A DNA stretch of 32,702 nucleotides from a virus. Under the pieces are notes generated by a model. That model was not told the DNA's origin. It made no database searches and saw only the letters and a list, made by a program, of their open reading frames with translations. The stretch is from UHGV virus genome UHGV-1394528, one strand, 5' to 3'. Below, in pieces: positions 1,386 through 19,519 of the stretch. The number at the start of each line of letters is the position of its first letter. Within the stretch, counting starts at the first letter, position 1. A program made the translations under genes and the position numbers.

Positions 1386-1431
1386 ATTTGTTCCTCTATT
1401 AAAGACCCCTTGGACCCTTAAGACAGGGACA

Positions 1432-1468
1432 AAAAAAAAGCCCCTGGCACCCGAAGGCACCAGGGGCG
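1432..1468 (-). terminator. intrinsic (rho-independent) terminator after the capsid region
   Basis: Minus-strand RNA: 12-bp stem GCCCCUGGUGCC / GGUGCCAGGGGC (two G-U pairs), UUCG tetraloop, then U9. On the plus strand the run is A9 upstream of the stem, so it works only for minus-strand transcription. Confidence 0.8.
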
Positions 1469-1472
1469 CGTA

Positions 1473-1655
1473 CTACTCTTCCGTAGTATCAGCGGCTACG
1501 TCAGCCGCCTTACGGGTTTTCTTGGTAGCCTTGCGGCCAGACTCGACCGAAGCCACCTGGATGTTCTTCGCTACATCGGTGGCGGCCTTAACCGCCTCCC
1601 GCTGAGCTGCATTGGCCTGGAGAGTCTCCAGACCGAACGTAGCAATTACTGCCAT
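1473..1655 (-). CDS. hypothetical 60-aa protein downstream of capsid gene
   Basis: Track ORF; strong SD (TTGGAGG, 5-nt spacer); lies in the -1 frame relative to the capsid gene and directly before the terminator. Confidence 0.5.
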   Translation of the reverse strand: MAVIATFGLETLQANAAQREAVKAATDVAKNIQVASVESGRKATKKTRKAADVAADTTEE

Positions 1656-9444: not shown

Positions 9445-9863
9445 TTAATAGTCTCCCGTGCTTTACGTCGTGCCCGGGCCTTGCGGGCCTTGAGCTTCTG
9501 TGCCTGCGCCAATTCTTCCGGCGTCTTGTGCGTATAGTATAGCATATCCGTAGGTTCGCGGTCTAAGTAATCGGCGACCCTACGTAGAGATTCAGCAATA
9601 GCCCCAGAAGATTGCATGCTACCAACAATCCAGCGCCCAGCGGCAGATGCCACTTTGCCTTCCCCTCCATTGCACGAGCGATGAAGAGCACCCCGAATAC
9701 GCCCAGTAATATGATCGTGGTCAACGACAACAGAATCACCAGTTACCCCCTTGATTGTGAAGTCCAAAGGTTTGCCACAAAGGGGGCAGATACCTCCCTG
9801 GTCTTTGGCAAGCTTAATTGCCACGGAGCGAATCTGTGCCCGTGTAATCTTCCGCAGACTCAT
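9441..9863 (-). CDS. endonuclease VII-like Holliday junction resolvase
   Basis: GICPLCGKPL...VVDHDHITGRIRGALHRSCNGGEGK matches the T4 endo VII zinc/HNH-like core. Start placed at Met8 of the track ORF (ATGA overlap with upstream small ORF); alternative start at 9884. Confidence 0.75.
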   Translation of the reverse strand: MSLRKITRAQIRSVAIKLAKDQGGICPLCGKPLDFTIKGVTGDSVVVDHDHITGRIRGALHRSCNGGEGKVASAAGRWIVGSMQSSGAIAESLRRVADYLDREPTDMLYYTHKTPEELAQAQKLKARKARARRKARETIK

Positions 9864-10039
9864 ACGTATATGAACCCCCACCATAAATGCGCGGAGCGTA
9901 TGTGAGCTACGGTCAGTGCCGGAGACATCACCTCTCCGGTGTTAGTGCACCTAACCTGAACCCCTTGCTGTGGGGCGGGTTCCAATATATACACGTCTTG
10001 TGTATCCTCAAAAGTATATTCTCTACCCATTTCTAACAT
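9860..10039 (-). CDS. hypothetical small protein, 59 aa (not in ORF track)
   Basis: Read by eye: MLEMGREYTFEDTQDVYILEPAPQQGVQVRCTNTGEVMSPALTVAHIRSAHLWWGFIYV; fills an otherwise ~150-bp gap; overlaps both neighbours at start and stop. Confidence 0.35.
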   Translation of the reverse strand: MLEMGREYTFEDTQDVYILEPAPQQGVQVRCTNTGEVMSPALTVAHIRSAHLWWGFIYV

Positions 10040-13538: not shown

Positions 13539-14481
13539 GCAGCATCGGAATTAACTGCGGGCAACCCTCGGTGATTACCATCACACCCAGGATTGGTTTC
13601 TTGCGGGTGAGTCTGCCGTAAGCAAAGGCCATGCTCTTACGGTCAATCAGACACCCAGCATACGCACCAAAGTACAAAGCTGTTGAGCTAGCTGCATATT
13701 GCACCTCAAAGCGACCATGTTCGTGACCAAGGACAAGGCTGGTTCTTTCGTGGCTAGCGTTGAGCATGAAGTCACCCGACACTTGATGCTGGAATCTAAC
13801 CGGGCCAAGTGGGGTATTGAGTACCCACGCGTCAGCCCAAGACCACGCCGGGGCACCATGTTCAGGGAAAAGTATATCTCGGTACTTCTTGATGAATTGC
13901 ACTGGTAGCCCGTGAGCTTTCGCCCTGCGGTAAACCAGACTGCCGTGATTGGAATCGCAAACCAATAGGTTCGGGAACAGTTCATGTAGCTCCTCCAGTA
14001 CGAGCTTAGCTTTCTCCAGCTCCACCCCGGCGCTATCCAGGTTCGGGTTACTTTCGTGGAATGATATAGCGTGGCCGTCCGTCTCGTCGCCTACCTGTAC
14101 AACCATGTCCGGACAGTAGGCGTCTCGCACAGATTCTAAGAAGGCCATAGCATCTACGTGCGTATAGGGGGCATGCAAATCCCCAACTACGAGAATACGG
14201 TGGCACACTTCCGGCACGAAGGTTTTGCCGATGTCATCAGTGGGACTGGGCTGTATGAGCTTTAGTGCCTCCTTCATGTGGGATATTGCCTTACCCTTGC
14301 TCCCAGCGTGGTCTAGGAATATGCTGCGCCAGTACTTCACCATCTGTCGATACACCACTGGCTCGTCCAGTCCCGCCAGCTTATTATAGGCGGCAGCAGC
14401 ATCCACGTTAGAGCTGTGCTTGCTCAAGATATCTATGTGTTGCTCTTTGGTGAATAGCTTTATTGTGTTTAACTTAGGCAT
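13501..14481 (-). CDS. calcineurin-like metallophosphoesterase
   Basis: Motifs in canonical order: GDLHAPY (DxH), VGDETDGH (GDxxD), CDSNHG (GNH-like), LGHEH. Confidence 0.7.
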   Translation of the reverse strand: MPKLNTIKLFTKEQHIDILSKHSSNVDAAAAYNKLAGLDEPVVYRQMVKYWRSIFLDHAGSKGKAISHMKEALKLIQPSPTDDIGKTFVPEVCHRILVVGDLHAPYTHVDAMAFLESVRDAYCPDMVVQVGDETDGHAISFHESNPNLDSAGVELEKAKLVLEELHELFPNLLVCDSNHGSLVYRRAKAHGLPVQFIKKYRDILFPEHGAPAWSWADAWVLNTPLGPVRFQHQVSGDFMLNASHERTSLVLGHEHGRFEVQYAASSTALYFGAYAGCLIDRKSMAFAYGRLTRKKPILGVMVITEGCPQLIPMLLDDDGRWVGRTK

Positions 14482-14908
14482 TCCAGCTCCTGTTACTTAT
14501 TACGTCACTAATTACATGTACACCTACACCGTACTTATTAGCAAAGTGTTGCCGCATACCTTTCTTGTATGGGATATAGTTATCCCTGATATCCTGCACA
14601 GCATCCCAAGTTAACTGCGCTTTTGGGTTCCTATCCCCACGCACATCTGGGTTCCTTCCGCGCTCTGCACGGTCCCGCATATTATCCATATGCGTTCCCA
14701 ATACTAAGTGCTTAGGGTTAATGCACCTGGGGTTATCGCAGGTATGTCTAACAGACAGGCCAGCCAGCGCCCTTATATCCAGCCCGTTATGCTCAGCATA
14801 CACCACCCGATGCAGCAGCTCCAATCGCCTGGTCGGCTTATACCATGCCCGGCGGTATCCGTTCTTGTTAAGGCATTTGTTATACCCGTGGTCAATACAC
14901 ATCGACAT
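14474..14908 (-). CDS. HNH homing endonuclease
   Basis: VRHTCDNPRCINPKHLVLGTHMDNMRDRAERGR motif; paralog of the HNH at 19520-19957; SD AAGAGGG upstream. Confidence 0.8.
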   Translation of the reverse strand: MSMCIDHGYNKCLNKNGYRRAWYKPTRRLELLHRVVYAEHNGLDIRALAGLSVRHTCDNPRCINPKHLVLGTHMDNMRDRAERGRNPDVRGDRNPKAQLTWDAVQDIRDNYIPYKKGMRQHFANKYGVGVHVISDVISNRSWNA

Positions 14909-15069: not shown

Positions 15070-15291
15070 CTATTCCACGATAAGCTTGTACTCCCCCGGG
15101 AAGAAGGTAACACCATCCCCCGGTCTACTTACTACTAGTCCAGGATAACTTAGTTCTATCTCCCCAGTAACCGGGTCGAAGAACATAACCGTGTGCCTCG
15201 TACCCGGGGTGAAGTATGCTGCATACCGCGGGTCTATCGGCTCAGGCCCCAGGTCCATCAACTCCACAACACTGCCAGACTTTATACTCAT
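15070..15291 (-). CDS. hypothetical protein, 73 aa
   Basis: Track ORF, 4-nt overlap with DNA polymerase stop. Confidence 0.45.
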   Translation of the reverse strand: MSIKSGSVVELMDLGPEPIDPRYAAYFTPGTRHTVMFFDPVTGEIELSYPGLVVSRPGDGVTFFPGEYKLIVE

Positions 15292-17678
15292 TCTACCTTC
15301 TCCTTACTGTACATACTCGTACCCATCTCAGCCTCTGCTGGGAACGGGACCTCACCAATGATGCCGTAGTTAGGCCAGAGCTGGTGAATACGCTTAGGTG
15401 CATCCTCCATGCACTGCTTAACCAGCAGGCTCGCCTCACGTCCAACCTCCGGGTTGGCGCTGTCCAGATACAACGCATCGTGCACGTTCGTAATCAGGCA
15501 CACCTGATTGTCGAACCAGTCACGGGCCAGGAGTGCACGCAGAACCATACCGGCGGCTACCGCCATCAGGAAGAATGCTTCCCCCTGGCACCAGTAGTTA
15601 GCCATCTCTGTTTCCTTGTAGTCCATTACCTTCTGCTTACGCTGCCCAGGCACAACCTCTTTCCACTGCTCCTTCTGGCGGAAGCTATAGCGGGCACCTG
15701 CTGGGCTAGTCCACGTCCCGATGCGGTAGACTCGGTAGCTGCCATCGTCAGCCTGCTCGCGGTACATGCGCCCGGCTGCCCCGGTGCGCTCTACTTCTTC
15801 CTTGATAACAGCGCGGAAGCCAATTGTTTGCGGGAACAGCGCAGCCTCGTTGTCCAAGAAAGCCTGTGCGAATTCCACCGTACATCCAGTAGCAAACGCA
15901 ATCCCCTTAGCCGTAGCGCCATACTGGGCTGCGAAGCTAGGAGCCTTAATACCTGTACGCATTGCCTTCCAAAGCGGATGCAGCTCGTGCTTCTTGTTGT
16001 GGCAGCGCTCATACACTTCTTCATACGGCAGTTCCTCGCGGAAAGCTAGGCGGTAACAGTGCATATCCGTGCCGCCCTGCAGCAGCCCCAGTAGTTTGGT
16101 GTCCCCCGTATGCACGCAGGACATAACCACTTCCAGCGCCGAGTAGTCAACCTCAGTGATGCGTCCGTTATCCCCGAATCGGCTGGTGAATACCTGCTTC
16201 ACCTTGGATTTAGCTACCCCATCCCCGTCTTCATCCGGTCGGGGTAGGTTCTGCAGGTTCGGGTTAGAGCTACTCAGGCGCCCGGTTACGGTGGCGCATG
16301 TATTCAGTCGGTGGTGTATGATGCCAGAACCATCAGGACGCTCAGGGATTACGTACTGTAACATACCCTTCCGCTCTTTGACTTTACCCTCTGCGTCCAG
16401 AACTTCACGCAAGTAGTAAGTTCCAGTGTCCTTCTCCAGCGCCGCCAGCTCGTTCACCAACTTACAGAACTCGAAACCTTGGCGGGCTAGTGCCTCCATT
16501 GCGTCTGTGCTGGTGCTGTACACAGGGGTATCATCCTGCAGGTTCCGCGCCTGCCGGAACTCGCCGCGCTCTGCATACTTCTCCCGGATAACTTCCGGCA
16601 GCTCCTGGATGTTCACCAGGCCCGGGCAGAAGTAAAGGTCGTCTTCCCATTTAAGTTTCTCCTCCTCGGTATCAAGGCGGAATACTTTGGGCAGCCCCTT
16701 GTTCTTGCCGGACTTGTACAACGTCCGTGGGTACGTCCACTCTGACTGCCAGTCAGACACATCAATATACTGCAACGTTCCATTGACGTCTGCTAAGTAA
16801 GCGTCGTACTTGACGTACTGCGGAGGGTCATAGGGAACCTTCTTGCGGTACTTGATAGGTCCACCGTATACCAGCGCAGACATATGAAAGTCCGAACCGA
16901 AGTTAAAGTCCAGCGTCTCCGGCAAGTCCTTCGGGATGTACTGCTGCAGCTCCTGCTTAATCTCGCGGATGCGCTGCTCCTGCTCCTCCTGGTTCTTGCG
17001 AGCAATTGGCATGTTCACGAACAGGCCGAACCACTCGCAATACGCCCAGGCTAGCAGAGCATCCATGCGCTCCCACACGTACTGCATCTGATTGCGCTGG
17101 GCGAACGTAGCGCACTGGCCGTAGAAGCACAGGGCCGTGTTCGGGATGTCCCCGTTAACCAGGTAGTCATGCAGCAGCATCGGGTCAATCTGGGAGGTTA
17201 GCACACCCTGCTCCCAGAGAATCTTAACCCCGTCTACTTTGTGCGTACCGCCGTACTTAGGAGCCGTCTCGTCCAGCGACGGATACATGCTCTGAAAGTC
17301 CGAGGCGATGTATTCTCCGTGCATTGTGCAGAACACCCTGCCGCCGCGCTTGAGGAAGGCCTCAAACTGCTGCCGCTGGTACGTGAGAAACCAAGAAATC
17401 TCATAGGCTGCGTTGTGCGCAACAATAAGCCAGCAATCCTCGGGGATATGAAACCACCGGCAGCCTTCTGCTGCACTGTTTCCCTCCAAGAAATCAGCTC
17501 TTGAATTGAAGCGCACCGATTGAGTCGCGCCAACAGTGGTAGTACCGTCAGCCTGTGTCGTGTCGATACGCCATGCTGACTCAACAACATAGTTGTCAGG
17601 GCAGTATGGGCTTGCTTTAGAGCCGTAATATTCATTGTTCTCTGTCTCCAGGTCAATGTGCATTATGCTGGTTGTCAT
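15288..17678 (-). CDS. DNA polymerase, family A (T7 gp5-like) with 3'-5' exonuclease domain
   Basis: N-terminal MHIDLETEN (Exo I), EVDYSALEVV (motif A), TGRLSSSNPNLQNLPR, KAPSFAAQYG (motif B), NVHDALYLD (motif C). Start set at Met8 of track ORF (ATG 17676-17678 overlaps upstream stop as ATGA). Confidence 0.9.
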   Translation of the reverse strand: MTTSIMHIDLETENNEYYGSKASPYCPDNYVVESAWRIDTTQADGTTTVGATQSVRFNSRADFLEGNSAAEGCRWFHIPEDCWLIVAHNAAYEISWFLTYQRQQFEAFLKRGGRVFCTMHGEYIASDFQSMYPSLDETAPKYGGTHKVDGVKILWEQGVLTSQIDPMLLHDYLVNGDIPNTALCFYGQCATFAQRNQMQYVWERMDALLAWAYCEWFGLFVNMPIARKNQEEQEQRIREIKQELQQYIPKDLPETLDFNFGSDFHMSALVYGGPIKYRKKVPYDPPQYVKYDAYLADVNGTLQYIDVSDWQSEWTYPRTLYKSGKNKGLPKVFRLDTEEEKLKWEDDLYFCPGLVNIQELPEVIREKYAERGEFRQARNLQDDTPVYSTSTDAMEALARQGFEFCKLVNELAALEKDTGTYYLREVLDAEGKVKERKGMLQYVIPERPDGSGIIHHRLNTCATVTGRLSSSNPNLQNLPRPDEDGDGVAKSKVKQVFTSRFGDNGRITEVDYSALEVVMSCVHTGDTKLLGLLQGGTDMHCYRLAFREELPYEEVYERCHNKKHELHPLWKAMRTGIKAPSFAAQYGATAKGIAFATGCTVEFAQAFLDNEAALFPQTIGFRAVIKEEVERTGAAGRMYREQADDGSYRVYRIGTWTSPAGARYSFRQKEQWKEVVPGQRKQKVMDYKETEMANYWCQGEAFFLMAVAAGMVLRALLARDWFDNQVCLITNVHDALYLDSANPEVGREASLLVKQCMEDAPKRIHQLWPNYGIIGEVPFPAEAEMGTSMYSKEKVE

Positions 17679-17863
17679 TGTACTACGACCCCCCCCCATA
17701 CTCGGAAATTACTTGTTACATGCGGGTCGTCAGTGCCCTCGGCTATTACGGCTTGACCATGTGCCACTGCATCTTCCCTTTTATACCATAGAGTTATATG
17801 CTCACCAAAGTAGTCATACCCATCTGTTTCCCAAGTCTCACAAACCCACACTTTCATTTCCAT
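17675..17863 (-). CDS. hypothetical protein, 62 aa, translationally coupled to DNA polymerase
   Basis: Track ORF; 3' end reads through the G9 homopolymer (encodes WGG); stop overlaps the polymerase ATG. Confidence 0.45.
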   Translation of the reverse strand: MEMKVWVCETWETDGYDYFGEHITLWYKREDAVAHGQAVIAEGTDDPHVTSNFRVWGGVVVQ

Positions 17864-18093
17864 TTAGCCCTCCGAGCCTTGTTGATAGCCAGATGCACAA
17901 TCAGCTGGCTGCTGTCCAGTGCGAATCGTTTACGGAAAGTACCTGCAGATGCAGCGTACGCCTTGATTACCTCGTCGTCTTGGTAGTTGATGTCTGACGG
18001 TTTAAGCATACTAGTAAATCTCCCAGCAGTGATATAGGCCCTACAATATCCCACTCTCTCTGATTGTAGCGTGCCCCGAGTTCCACGGTACAA
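17854..18093 (-). CDS. hypothetical protein (start uncertain)
   Basis: Track ORF; overlaps 17967..18188 in another frame, so at most one start choice is right. Confidence 0.3.
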   Translation of the reverse strand: MYRGTRGTLQSERVGYCRAYITAGRFTSMLKPSDINYQDDEVIKAYAASAGTFRKRFALDSSQLIVHLAINKARRAKWK

Positions 18094-18188
18094 AATTCCC
18101 CGGTAACGCGGTGTCGCACCACGTAACTACCGCGTATAAGTCCTGTGTAATCCACTTTTTGGATAACCCCTGTATAGTCTACTTGCAT
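17967..18188 (-). CDS. hypothetical protein, about 73 aa
   Basis: Track ORF 17967..18242 trimmed to Met19 (ATG 18186-18188) with strong SD AGGAGGG; palindromic motif C lies just upstream. Confidence 0.4.
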   Translation of the reverse strand: MQVDYTGVIQKVDYTGLIRGSYVVRHRVTGEFCTVELGARYNQREWDIVGPISLLGDLLVCLNRQTSTTKTTR

Positions 18189-18238
18189 AAACCCTCCTGT
18201 GTACCTACATAGCGCCCTCGTAGAAGGCGCTAGGGAAG

Positions 18239-19519
18239 TCACTGGTTAATCTGGCCTTCGTCAAATCTACAACGTCCAGGCTCGAATCCCACCTCGAATT
18301 GCAGGAGCGACTCTTTACCAGACAGCGCCATCTTGTTCTTAGGAGTACTGATACCTCGGACGTTTTGCATATGCGGCTGCTCGTTTCTGTCCAAGCACCC
18401 CATCATAATCGCCAAGTCCAAGGCACCCTGTACACCAATCTTGCTCTGCTTCATAGCAGTGAGCGGCGGGAACAGCATGTTGTAACCTTCGAGTGAAAGC
18501 TGCATAGTCCCTACGATAGCGCAGTCGTTCTCGCACCCAAGGATGCGCAGCTCCTGCCATTTCGCCTCGAGATTCTGGTGCTCACTCTCCATAGTGCCGC
18601 CACGGATATTCGCCACCATGTCGATGATGATTACCGCGGGGCGCATCTCCTCCATGAGTGTGGATATCTGCGCCATCGTCAAGGAGTGCGCAGCCTTTAC
18701 ACGAATCCGGTCAGCCCTGCCTACTTTCTTGAGGTAGGCTGGCACGAACTCTTGCTTACTGTGCCTGTCCTTAATCTCCGCCAGAGTCCAATGCAGCGCC
18801 GCTTGATATACCCTCGGCACTGTACGCGTCGCCGGACCCTCGTTAACCAGCCAGAGAATCGGGCGGTCCCCGTATACTTCCGGCTGCTGCTGCATCTGCT
18901 CAGCAAAGTCCACAGCAATAGCAGCAAGCAGGCTAGTTTTACCAGAGTCCACAGGAGCAGCCACTGCGATGCAGTCCCCGCCGCGTAGACCTCGGATGCT
19001 GCTAGCGAGTTGCTCGAACACGCCCAGTTTAAGACCACCGCTCTCGTCAGTCGCGGCAAGTATTTCGTCAACACTTCCGCTCTCCCATTCAAGCAGCGAC
19101 TCGTGCACTGCAGCACCGTCTCCGTACTTGCGCTGCAGGTGCTTCATTTCCAGTAGGTAATCAATCTCCTCGCCGTCTTGGTAGCGCTGCGTCAGCGCCG
19201 CCACCTCTCCGCTGTAGGCCAGCTCATTCAGGGTCTGGACAATCCCCACCACAGAATCCTGCGGTACGGCTTGTACTCCCCGCATAAGCTCGTCCATGAT
19301 TACCCGCTCTTCCCGGGATAGGTGTCCCGCCCGGAGATTGAGCATGCTCTGCATTGCATCCCACTGAACCTCCTGGTGCTCCGGGTACGTGTTCCAGTAC
19401 AACCCCACCCAGTCTAGTAGGTTCGACGTATCCGGCGCGAGCATGCTCTTAGGTATCTGCTCTCGCAAGCGAGTCCACACTTTCTGCGTGCACATAGCAC
19501 GAACAACTATTAGGTCCAA
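18239..19519 (-). CDS. DnaB-like replicative DNA helicase (T7 gp4 helicase-domain-like)
   Basis: 426 aa; Walker A GDCIAVAAPVDSGKTSLLA, Walker B-like AVIIIDMV; no primase domain. Confidence 0.8.
   Translation of the reverse strand: MDLIVVRAMCTQKVWTRLREQIPKSMLAPDTSNLLDWVGLYWNTYPEHQEVQWDAMQSMLNLRAGHLSREERVIMDELMRGVQAVPQDSVVGIVQTLNELAYSGEVAALTQRYQDGEEIDYLLEMKHLQRKYGDGAAVHESLLEWESGSVDEILAATDESGGLKLGVFEQLASSIRGLRGGDCIAVAAPVDSGKTSLLAAIAVDFAEQMQQQPEVYGDRPILWLVNEGPATRTVPRVYQAALHWTLAEIKDRHSKQEFVPAYLKKVGRADRIRVKAAHSLTMAQISTLMEEMRPAVIIIDMVANIRGGTMESEHQNLEAKWQELRILGCENDCAIVGTMQLSLEGYNMLFPPLTAMKQSKIGVQGALDLAIMMGCLDRNEQPHMQNVRGISTPKNKMALSGKESLLQFEVGFEPGRCRFDEGQINQ

Follow-up and report, generated by a model that had tools for sequence, protein, structure and literature searches.

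Why should a run of nine G residues stand exactly where a 62-residue open reading frame (ORF62) gives way to the DNA polymerase gene of a phage? The run, here called G9, lies in the viral genome UHGV-1394528 (32,702 nucleotides, the whole of which we refer to as the window), a Drulisvirus of the KP34-like Klebsiella podoviruses in the Autographiviridae, which originated from a human gut metagenome. The nearest match to the region of the polymerase junction was Klebsiella phage RCIP0106 (98.6%), among at least 240 matching phage records. The initial annotation had left a ribosome-binding element, a slippage site and an error in homopolymer length side by side as explanations. We concluded that G9 is very probably the Shine-Dalgarno (SD) element of the polymerase gene, placed inside the last codons of ORF62 at a translationally coupled ATGA junction, and that its homopolymer spelling is specific to this lineage.

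Re-reading of the sequence agreed with the initial annotation on nine G on the minus strand at 17689-17697, within the reading ...CGAGTATGGGGGGGGGTCGTAGTACAATGACAACC... (also ...TTCCGAGTATGGGGGGGGGTCGTAGTACAATGACAACCAGC...), and on their location in the last codons of ORF62 (17863..17675, minus strand), whose 3' end reads TGG GGG GGG GTC GTA GTA CAA TGA with the tract inside the codons W-G-G-(V). The two genes overlap as ATGA at 17675..17678 on the minus strand, with the polymerase ATG at 17678-17676 and the TGA of ORF62 at 17677-17675. The tract had been rightly described as lying upstream of this ATG, but the distance given for it, 12-20 nt, has to be amended: counted from the A of the ATG, it occupies -19 to -11, leaving a spacer of 10 nt. 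Read in the polymerase frame from an ATG at 17699-17697, the same bases give ATG GGG GGG GGT CGT AGT ACA ATG, or MGGGRST-M, so the MGGGRST extension of the predicted polymerase is indeed the tract itself, as had been recognized.

The context of G9 is predicted to form a duplex of -11.1 kcal/mol with the 3' end of the 16S rRNA (ACCUCCUUA), in which pairing stops 11 nt short of the ATG, while random 25-mers from the same strand averaged -3.9 kcal/mol and only 2.2% of them reached -10 or lower. For the window together with 14 loci from relatives (L001-L012, L018 and L019), the predicted pairing with the anti-SD ranged from -8.2 to -11.1 kcal/mol and the paired stretch ended 8-11 nt before the polymerase ATG; G9 paired most strongly within the set, bar a synthetic G7 tract (-11.3). 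The 10-nt spacer of the window falls within the 5-13 nt expected of an SD element, and the motif spacer was 10-11 nt in the relatives that were read. A GGAGG-like motif occupied the same place whether ORF62, another small ORF or an ORF of a third kind (ORF51) lay upstream, and the ATGA overlap at the polymerase start was found in the window and in all 22 of 22 distinct relatives, across three different upstream genes. Since the SD-like motif keeps a fixed place and all of its versions pair strongly, it is the SD element and the overlap that are conserved, and not the homopolymer or its length. The suggestion of a G-rich ribosome-binding element was thus borne out, the tract aligning column by column with the GGAGG-type motifs of relatives at the same distance from the ATG, whichever gene is upstream.

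Other ATGA junctions of the same design were present in the window, with GGAGGG before ORF62, AAGGAGAAGG after the polymerase gene and GGTGGGGG at 9863. The last of these (9863-9890, minus strand) is a G-run, SD-like sequence 9-10 nt before its ATGA junction with a predicted anti-SD pairing of -9.1 kcal/mol, and this genome thus uses a G-rich SD spelling more than once.

The spelling of the motif differed among relatives that share ORF62. RCIP0106, vB_Kpn_K51PH129C1, P7285, a metagenome contig (L012) and contigs L024-L026 carry a G6 tract, TGGGGGGTC (TGGGGGG), and their ORF62 ends in …VWGVVVQ*; in L020-L023 the run is interrupted by a synonymous GGA codon, TGGGGAGTC (TGGGGAG), with the same ORF62 ending as in the G6 genomes; and SKP1, AltoGao, KpV41, VLC5, TK-2018 and RCIP0041 have TGGGAGG, with an ORF62 ending in …VWE…. 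At the position of the heptamer G_GGG_GGG, other genomes had TGGGGGGTC, TGGGGAGTC or TGGGAGGC, and none had the heptamer itself. G9 (TGG-GGG-GGG-G, encoding W-G-G) was limited to the window genome among those sampled, and the nearest genomes carry G6, from which G9 differs by exactly 3 nt, in frame, equivalent to one glycine. An order of spellings from W-E (TGG-GAG-G) through W-G (TGG-GGA/GGG-G) to W-G-G is plausible, judged without a tree. Exact-pattern scans of IMG/VR for a variable tract (CCGAGTATGG-N0-14-TCGTAGTACAATGAC and TGGGGG-N0-8-TCGTAGTACAATGACAAC) gave no match, and a pattern scan of metagenomes for the tract returned one contig, with G6. The W-E/G-(G-initial codon) end of ORF62 would be a case of dual coding constraint, held in place by the SD need of the next gene.

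The motif also persists where ORF62 is absent or displaced. In NTUH-K2044-K1-1, which lacks ORF62, a gene of the ORF51 family (…RRAKWK*) shares an ATGA with the start of the polymerase gene, GGAGGG lying 10 nt before it, and in vB_KpnP_B1 an unrelated small ORF precedes the polymerase gene with GAGGGG; across vB_KpnP_B1, phi1_146024 and KP-Rio/2015 the motifs before the polymerase gene were GAGGGG or GAGGAG. The latter two phages carry a homologue of ORF62 and the other small ORF in tandem, with ORF62 away from the polymerase gene, and here the ORF62 end, TGGGAGG-N10-ATGA, serves the next small gene, which argues for a portable junction made of an SD element plus an overlap. In L018 and L019 the ATGA junction of the ORF62 homologue itself is with the small ORF that follows.

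In the mechanism that we propose, pairing of the G run with the anti-SD (G-C plus G-U pairs with CCUCC) would hold ribosomes that are ending ORF62, together with free 30S subunits, and initiation would take place at the ATG at 17678, 10 nt past the end of the tract, to give a polymerase of 796 aa. An in-frame gain of GGG, most likely by replication slippage, would have added one more glycine to ORF62 with the frames, the overlap and the spacer unchanged, and SD elements of this G-rich kind could seed homopolymers in this way. Use of this ATG, coupling by termination and reinitiation, and the origin of the added GGG by replication slippage are what we infer from the arrangement. SD-led coupled overlapping genes with ATGA or TGATG junctions occur in many early operons of phages and in the trp operon of E. 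coli, and the present junction resembles them in its purine-rich anti-SD element within the upstream 3' end, its 4-nt stop/start overlap and a position of the element that is conserved irrespective of the upstream coding sequence. It is unlike the usual coupled junction in having a pure G9 in place of GGAGG, a G-U as the middle pair with the anti-SD and a rather long spacer of 10 nt. The finding is an ordinary one.

The start of the polymerase is central to this reading. The gene (15288..17678, minus strand) encodes a family A DNA polymerase (PF00476, PHROG 9556) of 796 aa beginning MTTSIMHIDLE. Gene calls on the G9 contigs gave the 796-aa polymerase with the MTTS start, and MTTS is also the start in annotated relatives without a plain annotation fault, the exceptions being K2044, called from GTG-GAA-ATG (MEMTTS), and AltoGao, called from an internal Met. 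A sequence search of the PDB aligned only the polymerase domain (residues ~440-755) and did not place the N-terminus; because of this coverage we used the start of the PHROG 9556 profile, which begins at residue 4 of the polymerase. The in-frame ATG that gives MGGGRST (17697..17699, minus strand) appears incidental and is no conserved start: its A falls at the third position of a Val codon, for which relatives have GTA, GTC, GTG or GTT. Initiation at the ATG at 17699 was considered and rejected, as no SD-like sequence precedes it and its A sits at a wobble position that varies freely. The MGGGRST extension reads as a by-product of the longest-ORF rule, and for annotation the polymerase would best be taken from MTTS (ATG 17678) and not from MGGGRST, with ORF62 and the polymerase as two genes. 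In AltoGao (L003, NC_047849.1; 717-1395), RefSeq has the polymerase begin at an internal Met (locus 1071), its N-terminal region being covered by gp18 (760-969), labelled a 'hypothetical protein'. The polymerase ORF of AltoGao is intact from MTTSIMHIDLE (locus 717), and this is an annotation error and not a split gene.

Several observations weigh against the SD reading. A spacer of 10 nt is near the long end of the functional range between an SD element and its start (~5-13 nt), although it is conserved across relatives despite its length. When the tract was lengthened or shortened in silico, anti-SD pairing levelled off at G7-G8, so that nine G are beyond what an SD element needs and the extra length brings no evident benefit. 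The polymerase start and the coupling are read from conservation and gene calls. Different assemblers reproduce the homopolymer, and yet its biological source is in effect a single one. Five assemblies on record contain the exact 62-aa protein, all of them with G9 (an ENA scaffold, Logan, two ENA MEGAHIT-style contigs and JGI), four of which are exact substrings of the window while the fifth differs at one terminal base, and a single human gut metagenome run (SRR341613) is the origin of at least three. Finally, the genome otherwise avoids G/C runs: the window has only 3 of six or more where 13.8 would be expected, with G9 as the only one longer than six, and for this reason G9 may be transient or mildly deleterious and not strictly neutral. 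By composition alone the run is unremarkable, 22% of sequences simulated from a first-order Markov model of the window containing a G/C run of at least nine and G8 matches numbering 2 against 1.34 expected from dinucleotide shuffles. A G-quadruplex was also considered and rejected, as one G run cannot form an intramolecular quadruplex.

The single source gives some force to the suspicion that G9 is an artefact of sequencing or assembly and that the real run falls short of nine, being perhaps the G6 of the nearest relatives. Homopolymers are prone to error, G9 is confined to contigs apparently from one human gut sample, and the closest genomes have G6. We nevertheless hold a length error to be decidedly unlikely, because G9 departs from the nearest relatives by exactly +3 nt, leaves both frames and the ATGA overlap intact, and is shared by five assemblies (effectively one sample), whereas homopolymer errors are typically of +/-1. 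The source data are from Illumina sequencing, which seldom produces consensus indel errors at 9-mers.

Might the length of the tract instead be the point? Long G/C homopolymers are hot spots of slipped-strand mutation in Neisseria, Haemophilus, Campylobacter and Campylobacter phages, and G9 could act as a contingency tract, changing length fast during phage replication and switching the population among two unfused genes (G9, G6), the fused form (G10, G7) and an ORF62 cut short at its C-terminus (G8). The in-silico series has the geometry for such a switch: G10 and G7 fuse ORF62 to the polymerase in products of 858 and 857 aa, respectively, G8, G5 and G11 stop ORF62 early at a TAG, G6 and G9 leave two genes, and every variant keeps the polymerase's own SD element and ATG, so that all lengths would spare polymerase expression signals. 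At least one change in tract length has happened, given the G6 and G9 alleles. The lengths seen in genomes and protein clusters, on the other hand, were the in-frame 6 and 9 only, with no G7, G8 or G10 allele; the protein collection held no truncated or fused ORF62 product; and five assemblies made by different pipelines all gave G9, from a tract present in one source. To our knowledge, no contingency-tract mechanism has been described for Klebsiella phages, the literature covered being titles on frameshifting in Drulisvirus. We regard a contingency tract as distinctly improbable, somewhat more so than a length error.

The remaining question is whether the tract joins the two proteins by recoding. 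The heptamer G_GGG_GGG lies in the X_XXY_YYZ phase of the ORF62 frame, and the -1 frame is open, reading GRST-MTTS... into the polymerase, so that a -1 ribosomal slip would yield the same 858-aa product as G10. The predicted fusion would be recognizable by the peptides VWGGGR and STMTTSIMHIDLETENNEYYGSK, and a polymerase started at MTTS by the N-terminal peptide (M)TTSIMHIDLETENNEYYGSK. The claim that a one-nucleotide slip fuses ORF62 to the polymerase thus held for the geometry, from which the 858-aa fusion was computed; a selected function for the fusion found no support. Frameshift products are known in T7-like phages, for example gene 10A/10B, and a selected -1 frameshift on the heptamer, or the addition of one G by RNA polymerase, could in principle make a functional ORF62-polymerase fusion beside the separate proteins. 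For the transcriptional route, nine identical bases equal the length of the RNA-DNA hybrid (9-10 bp), and bacterial RNA-polymerase slippage is efficient at runs of nine A or T (Atkins et al. 2016, PMC5009743). The tract reaches that length of at least nine; its conservation does not match, G9 being found in one source only, and the efficient cases in this review sit on A/T runs, with no comparable slippage described in it for bacterial G runs.

For the ribosomal route, the E. coli survey of Sharma et al. 2014 (PMC4066793) took in all X_XXZ_ZZN heptamers, and in it GGGGGGG without a stimulator gave 0.030% -1 frameshifting, against a background of 0.037-0.055% (Table S3), rising to 0.088% with the IS911 stimulators and to 1.07% with the IS3 pseudoknot. 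The heptamer alone is therefore at background, the figures being those of E. coli and not of Klebsiella, and in the same reporters G_GG.G-type sequences acted as SD sequences. Folding of the 111 nt from the tract on gave a minimum free energy of -25.8 kcal/mol, no better than that of shuffled sequences (mean -22.6; z = -1.1), with a nearly unstructured centroid, pseudoknots not being specifically modelled. An Rfam search of 17300-18300 at a permissive threshold matched no family, and a promoter and terminator scan of 17300-18400 returned nothing above shuffle expectation. Titles of the literature on frameshifting in Drulisvirus concern host resistance or depolymerases and, by title only, none apparently deals with this site.

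Comparative evidence points in the same direction. The slippery run is broken or missing in every other sampled lineage, even by the synonymous GGA, and ORF62 is itself accessory: it occurs in only 29 phage records, while the flanking region is common to at least 240, and in some genomes another gene lies between ORF62 and the polymerase gene. Homologues of ORF62 fell into 12 protein clusters with 151 member sequences, all of 45-61 aa and none fused to a polymerase. Foldseek searches with a model of ORF62 retrieved only small phage proteins that are themselves uncharacterised, along with PDB matches short of significance, and hence no functional or structural link of ORF62 to polymerase accessory domains. 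Given a background rate in E. coli, no predicted structure, no conservation and no fused homologues, we consider a programmed fusion very unlikely, the least probable of the explanations weighed here. The proposal of a slippage site accordingly stands for its geometry and fails for a selected function. Incidental low-level slippage on G9 is possible, and an ORF62-polymerase fusion arising from it would be noise without a selected function. We can also imagine a young, unconserved recoding or contingency site born from the SD element, in which G9 slips measurably and a minority fusion has a phenotypic effect, for example by altering replication or evading a host defence; this we rate just above the programmed fusion and a little below the long-standing contingency tract, and so as highly improbable.

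Known recoding systems help to define what this junction has and lacks. Like E. coli dnaX, where A_AAA_AAG is preceded by an SD and followed by a hairpin, and like the orfA-orfB pair of IS3 and IS911, it has an X_XXY_YYZ heptamer near the end of an upstream ORF and a downstream ORF in the -1 frame, and as in that comparison a replication-polymerase gene and an SD-like sequence are present. Unlike them, it has no conserved heptamer, downstream stimulator or conserved trans-frame product, and a G heptamer is at background in E. coli; moreover, the SD-like sequence here is the candidate slippery site itself, whereas in dnaX it lies upstream of the site. The homopolymer of nine, and the fact that a +1 transcript would join two ORFs, recall dnaX of Thermus thermophilus (nine T in the template) and Shigella spa13 (PMC5009743), from which G9 differs as an unconserved G/C run known from sequence alone. 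As a G run in a viral coding sequence, it resembles the G7/G8 string of the herpes simplex virus (HSV) thymidine kinase gene, where indels and compensatory low-level frameshifting occur (PMC5009743), both being properties of HSV; that virus is eukaryotic and its indels are drug-selected, and no out-of-frame indel allele was seen at the present junction. A homopolymer at a gene junction and in frameshift phase may thus resemble a recoding signal, and it was the relatives that revealed the SD element of an ordinary coupled junction, which we recommend as a caution for similar cases.

ORF62 itself (17675..17863, minus strand) is a small conserved accessory gene matching PHROG 36213 (profile match, E=6e-30). 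Its pairwise dN/dS was 0.04-0.27, with dS up to ~1.7, and its AlphaFold model had a pLDDT of 91.5 and a beta-beta-alpha-beta fold. Judging from these features ORF62 is a real gene. Its start is ambiguous, M1 (ATG 17863) being ATG, GTG or missing in relatives. M3 (ATG 17857-17855) is invariant. It forms an ATGA with the stop of ORF51 and is preceded at 10 nt by GGAGGG, an arrangement shared with the polymerase junction; the true start of ORF62 may be M3, with a product of 60 aa. Members of 59 aa in the protein clusters were examined as possible G8 alleles (…WGGS*) and rejected, as they are start-site variants (MKVW…) that end in WGVVVQ. The only frameshifted member of the family that we saw was P0011 (45 aa, from one Logan contig), a homologue whose reading frame is lost after …ITLWYKK (…KGRCNSTWSRGNSRGR), probably from an indel in the A-rich TATAAAAGG.

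Upstream of ORF62 lies ORF51 (17854..18009, minus strand; PHROG 4548), whose 3' end contains GGAGGG 10 nt before its ATGA with ORF62. Together these belong to a cassette of small genes between a DnaB-like helicase gene and the polymerase gene (~17675-18230; compared in L005, L006, L018 and L019) that is mosaic among Drulisviruses, with ORF62 present, absent, in tandem with or replaced by an unrelated ORF of ~60 aa (MEMKVYLLTYGF…/MKIYLLMYSYRWGYE…). The SD-N10-ATGA junction ends every module of this cassette and may serve as a recombination joint.

Downstream of the polymerase gene, on the same strand (14474-14908 and 15070-15291), are a 73-aa ORF and an HNH endonuclease gene (PHROG 6254), with an ATGA (15291) linking the 73-aa ORF to the stop of the polymerase gene. 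Elsewhere in the window there was one other homopolymer of nine, an A9 on the plus strand at 1431-1439 that is T9 on the coding minus strand. It forms the U-tract of a GC-rich hairpin, CCCCTGGTGCC-TTCG-GGTGCCAGGGG-T9 (1431-1470, minus strand), directly 3' of a 60-aa ORF (1473..1655), and by these features this hairpin and its T9 are a predicted intrinsic terminator of textbook form.

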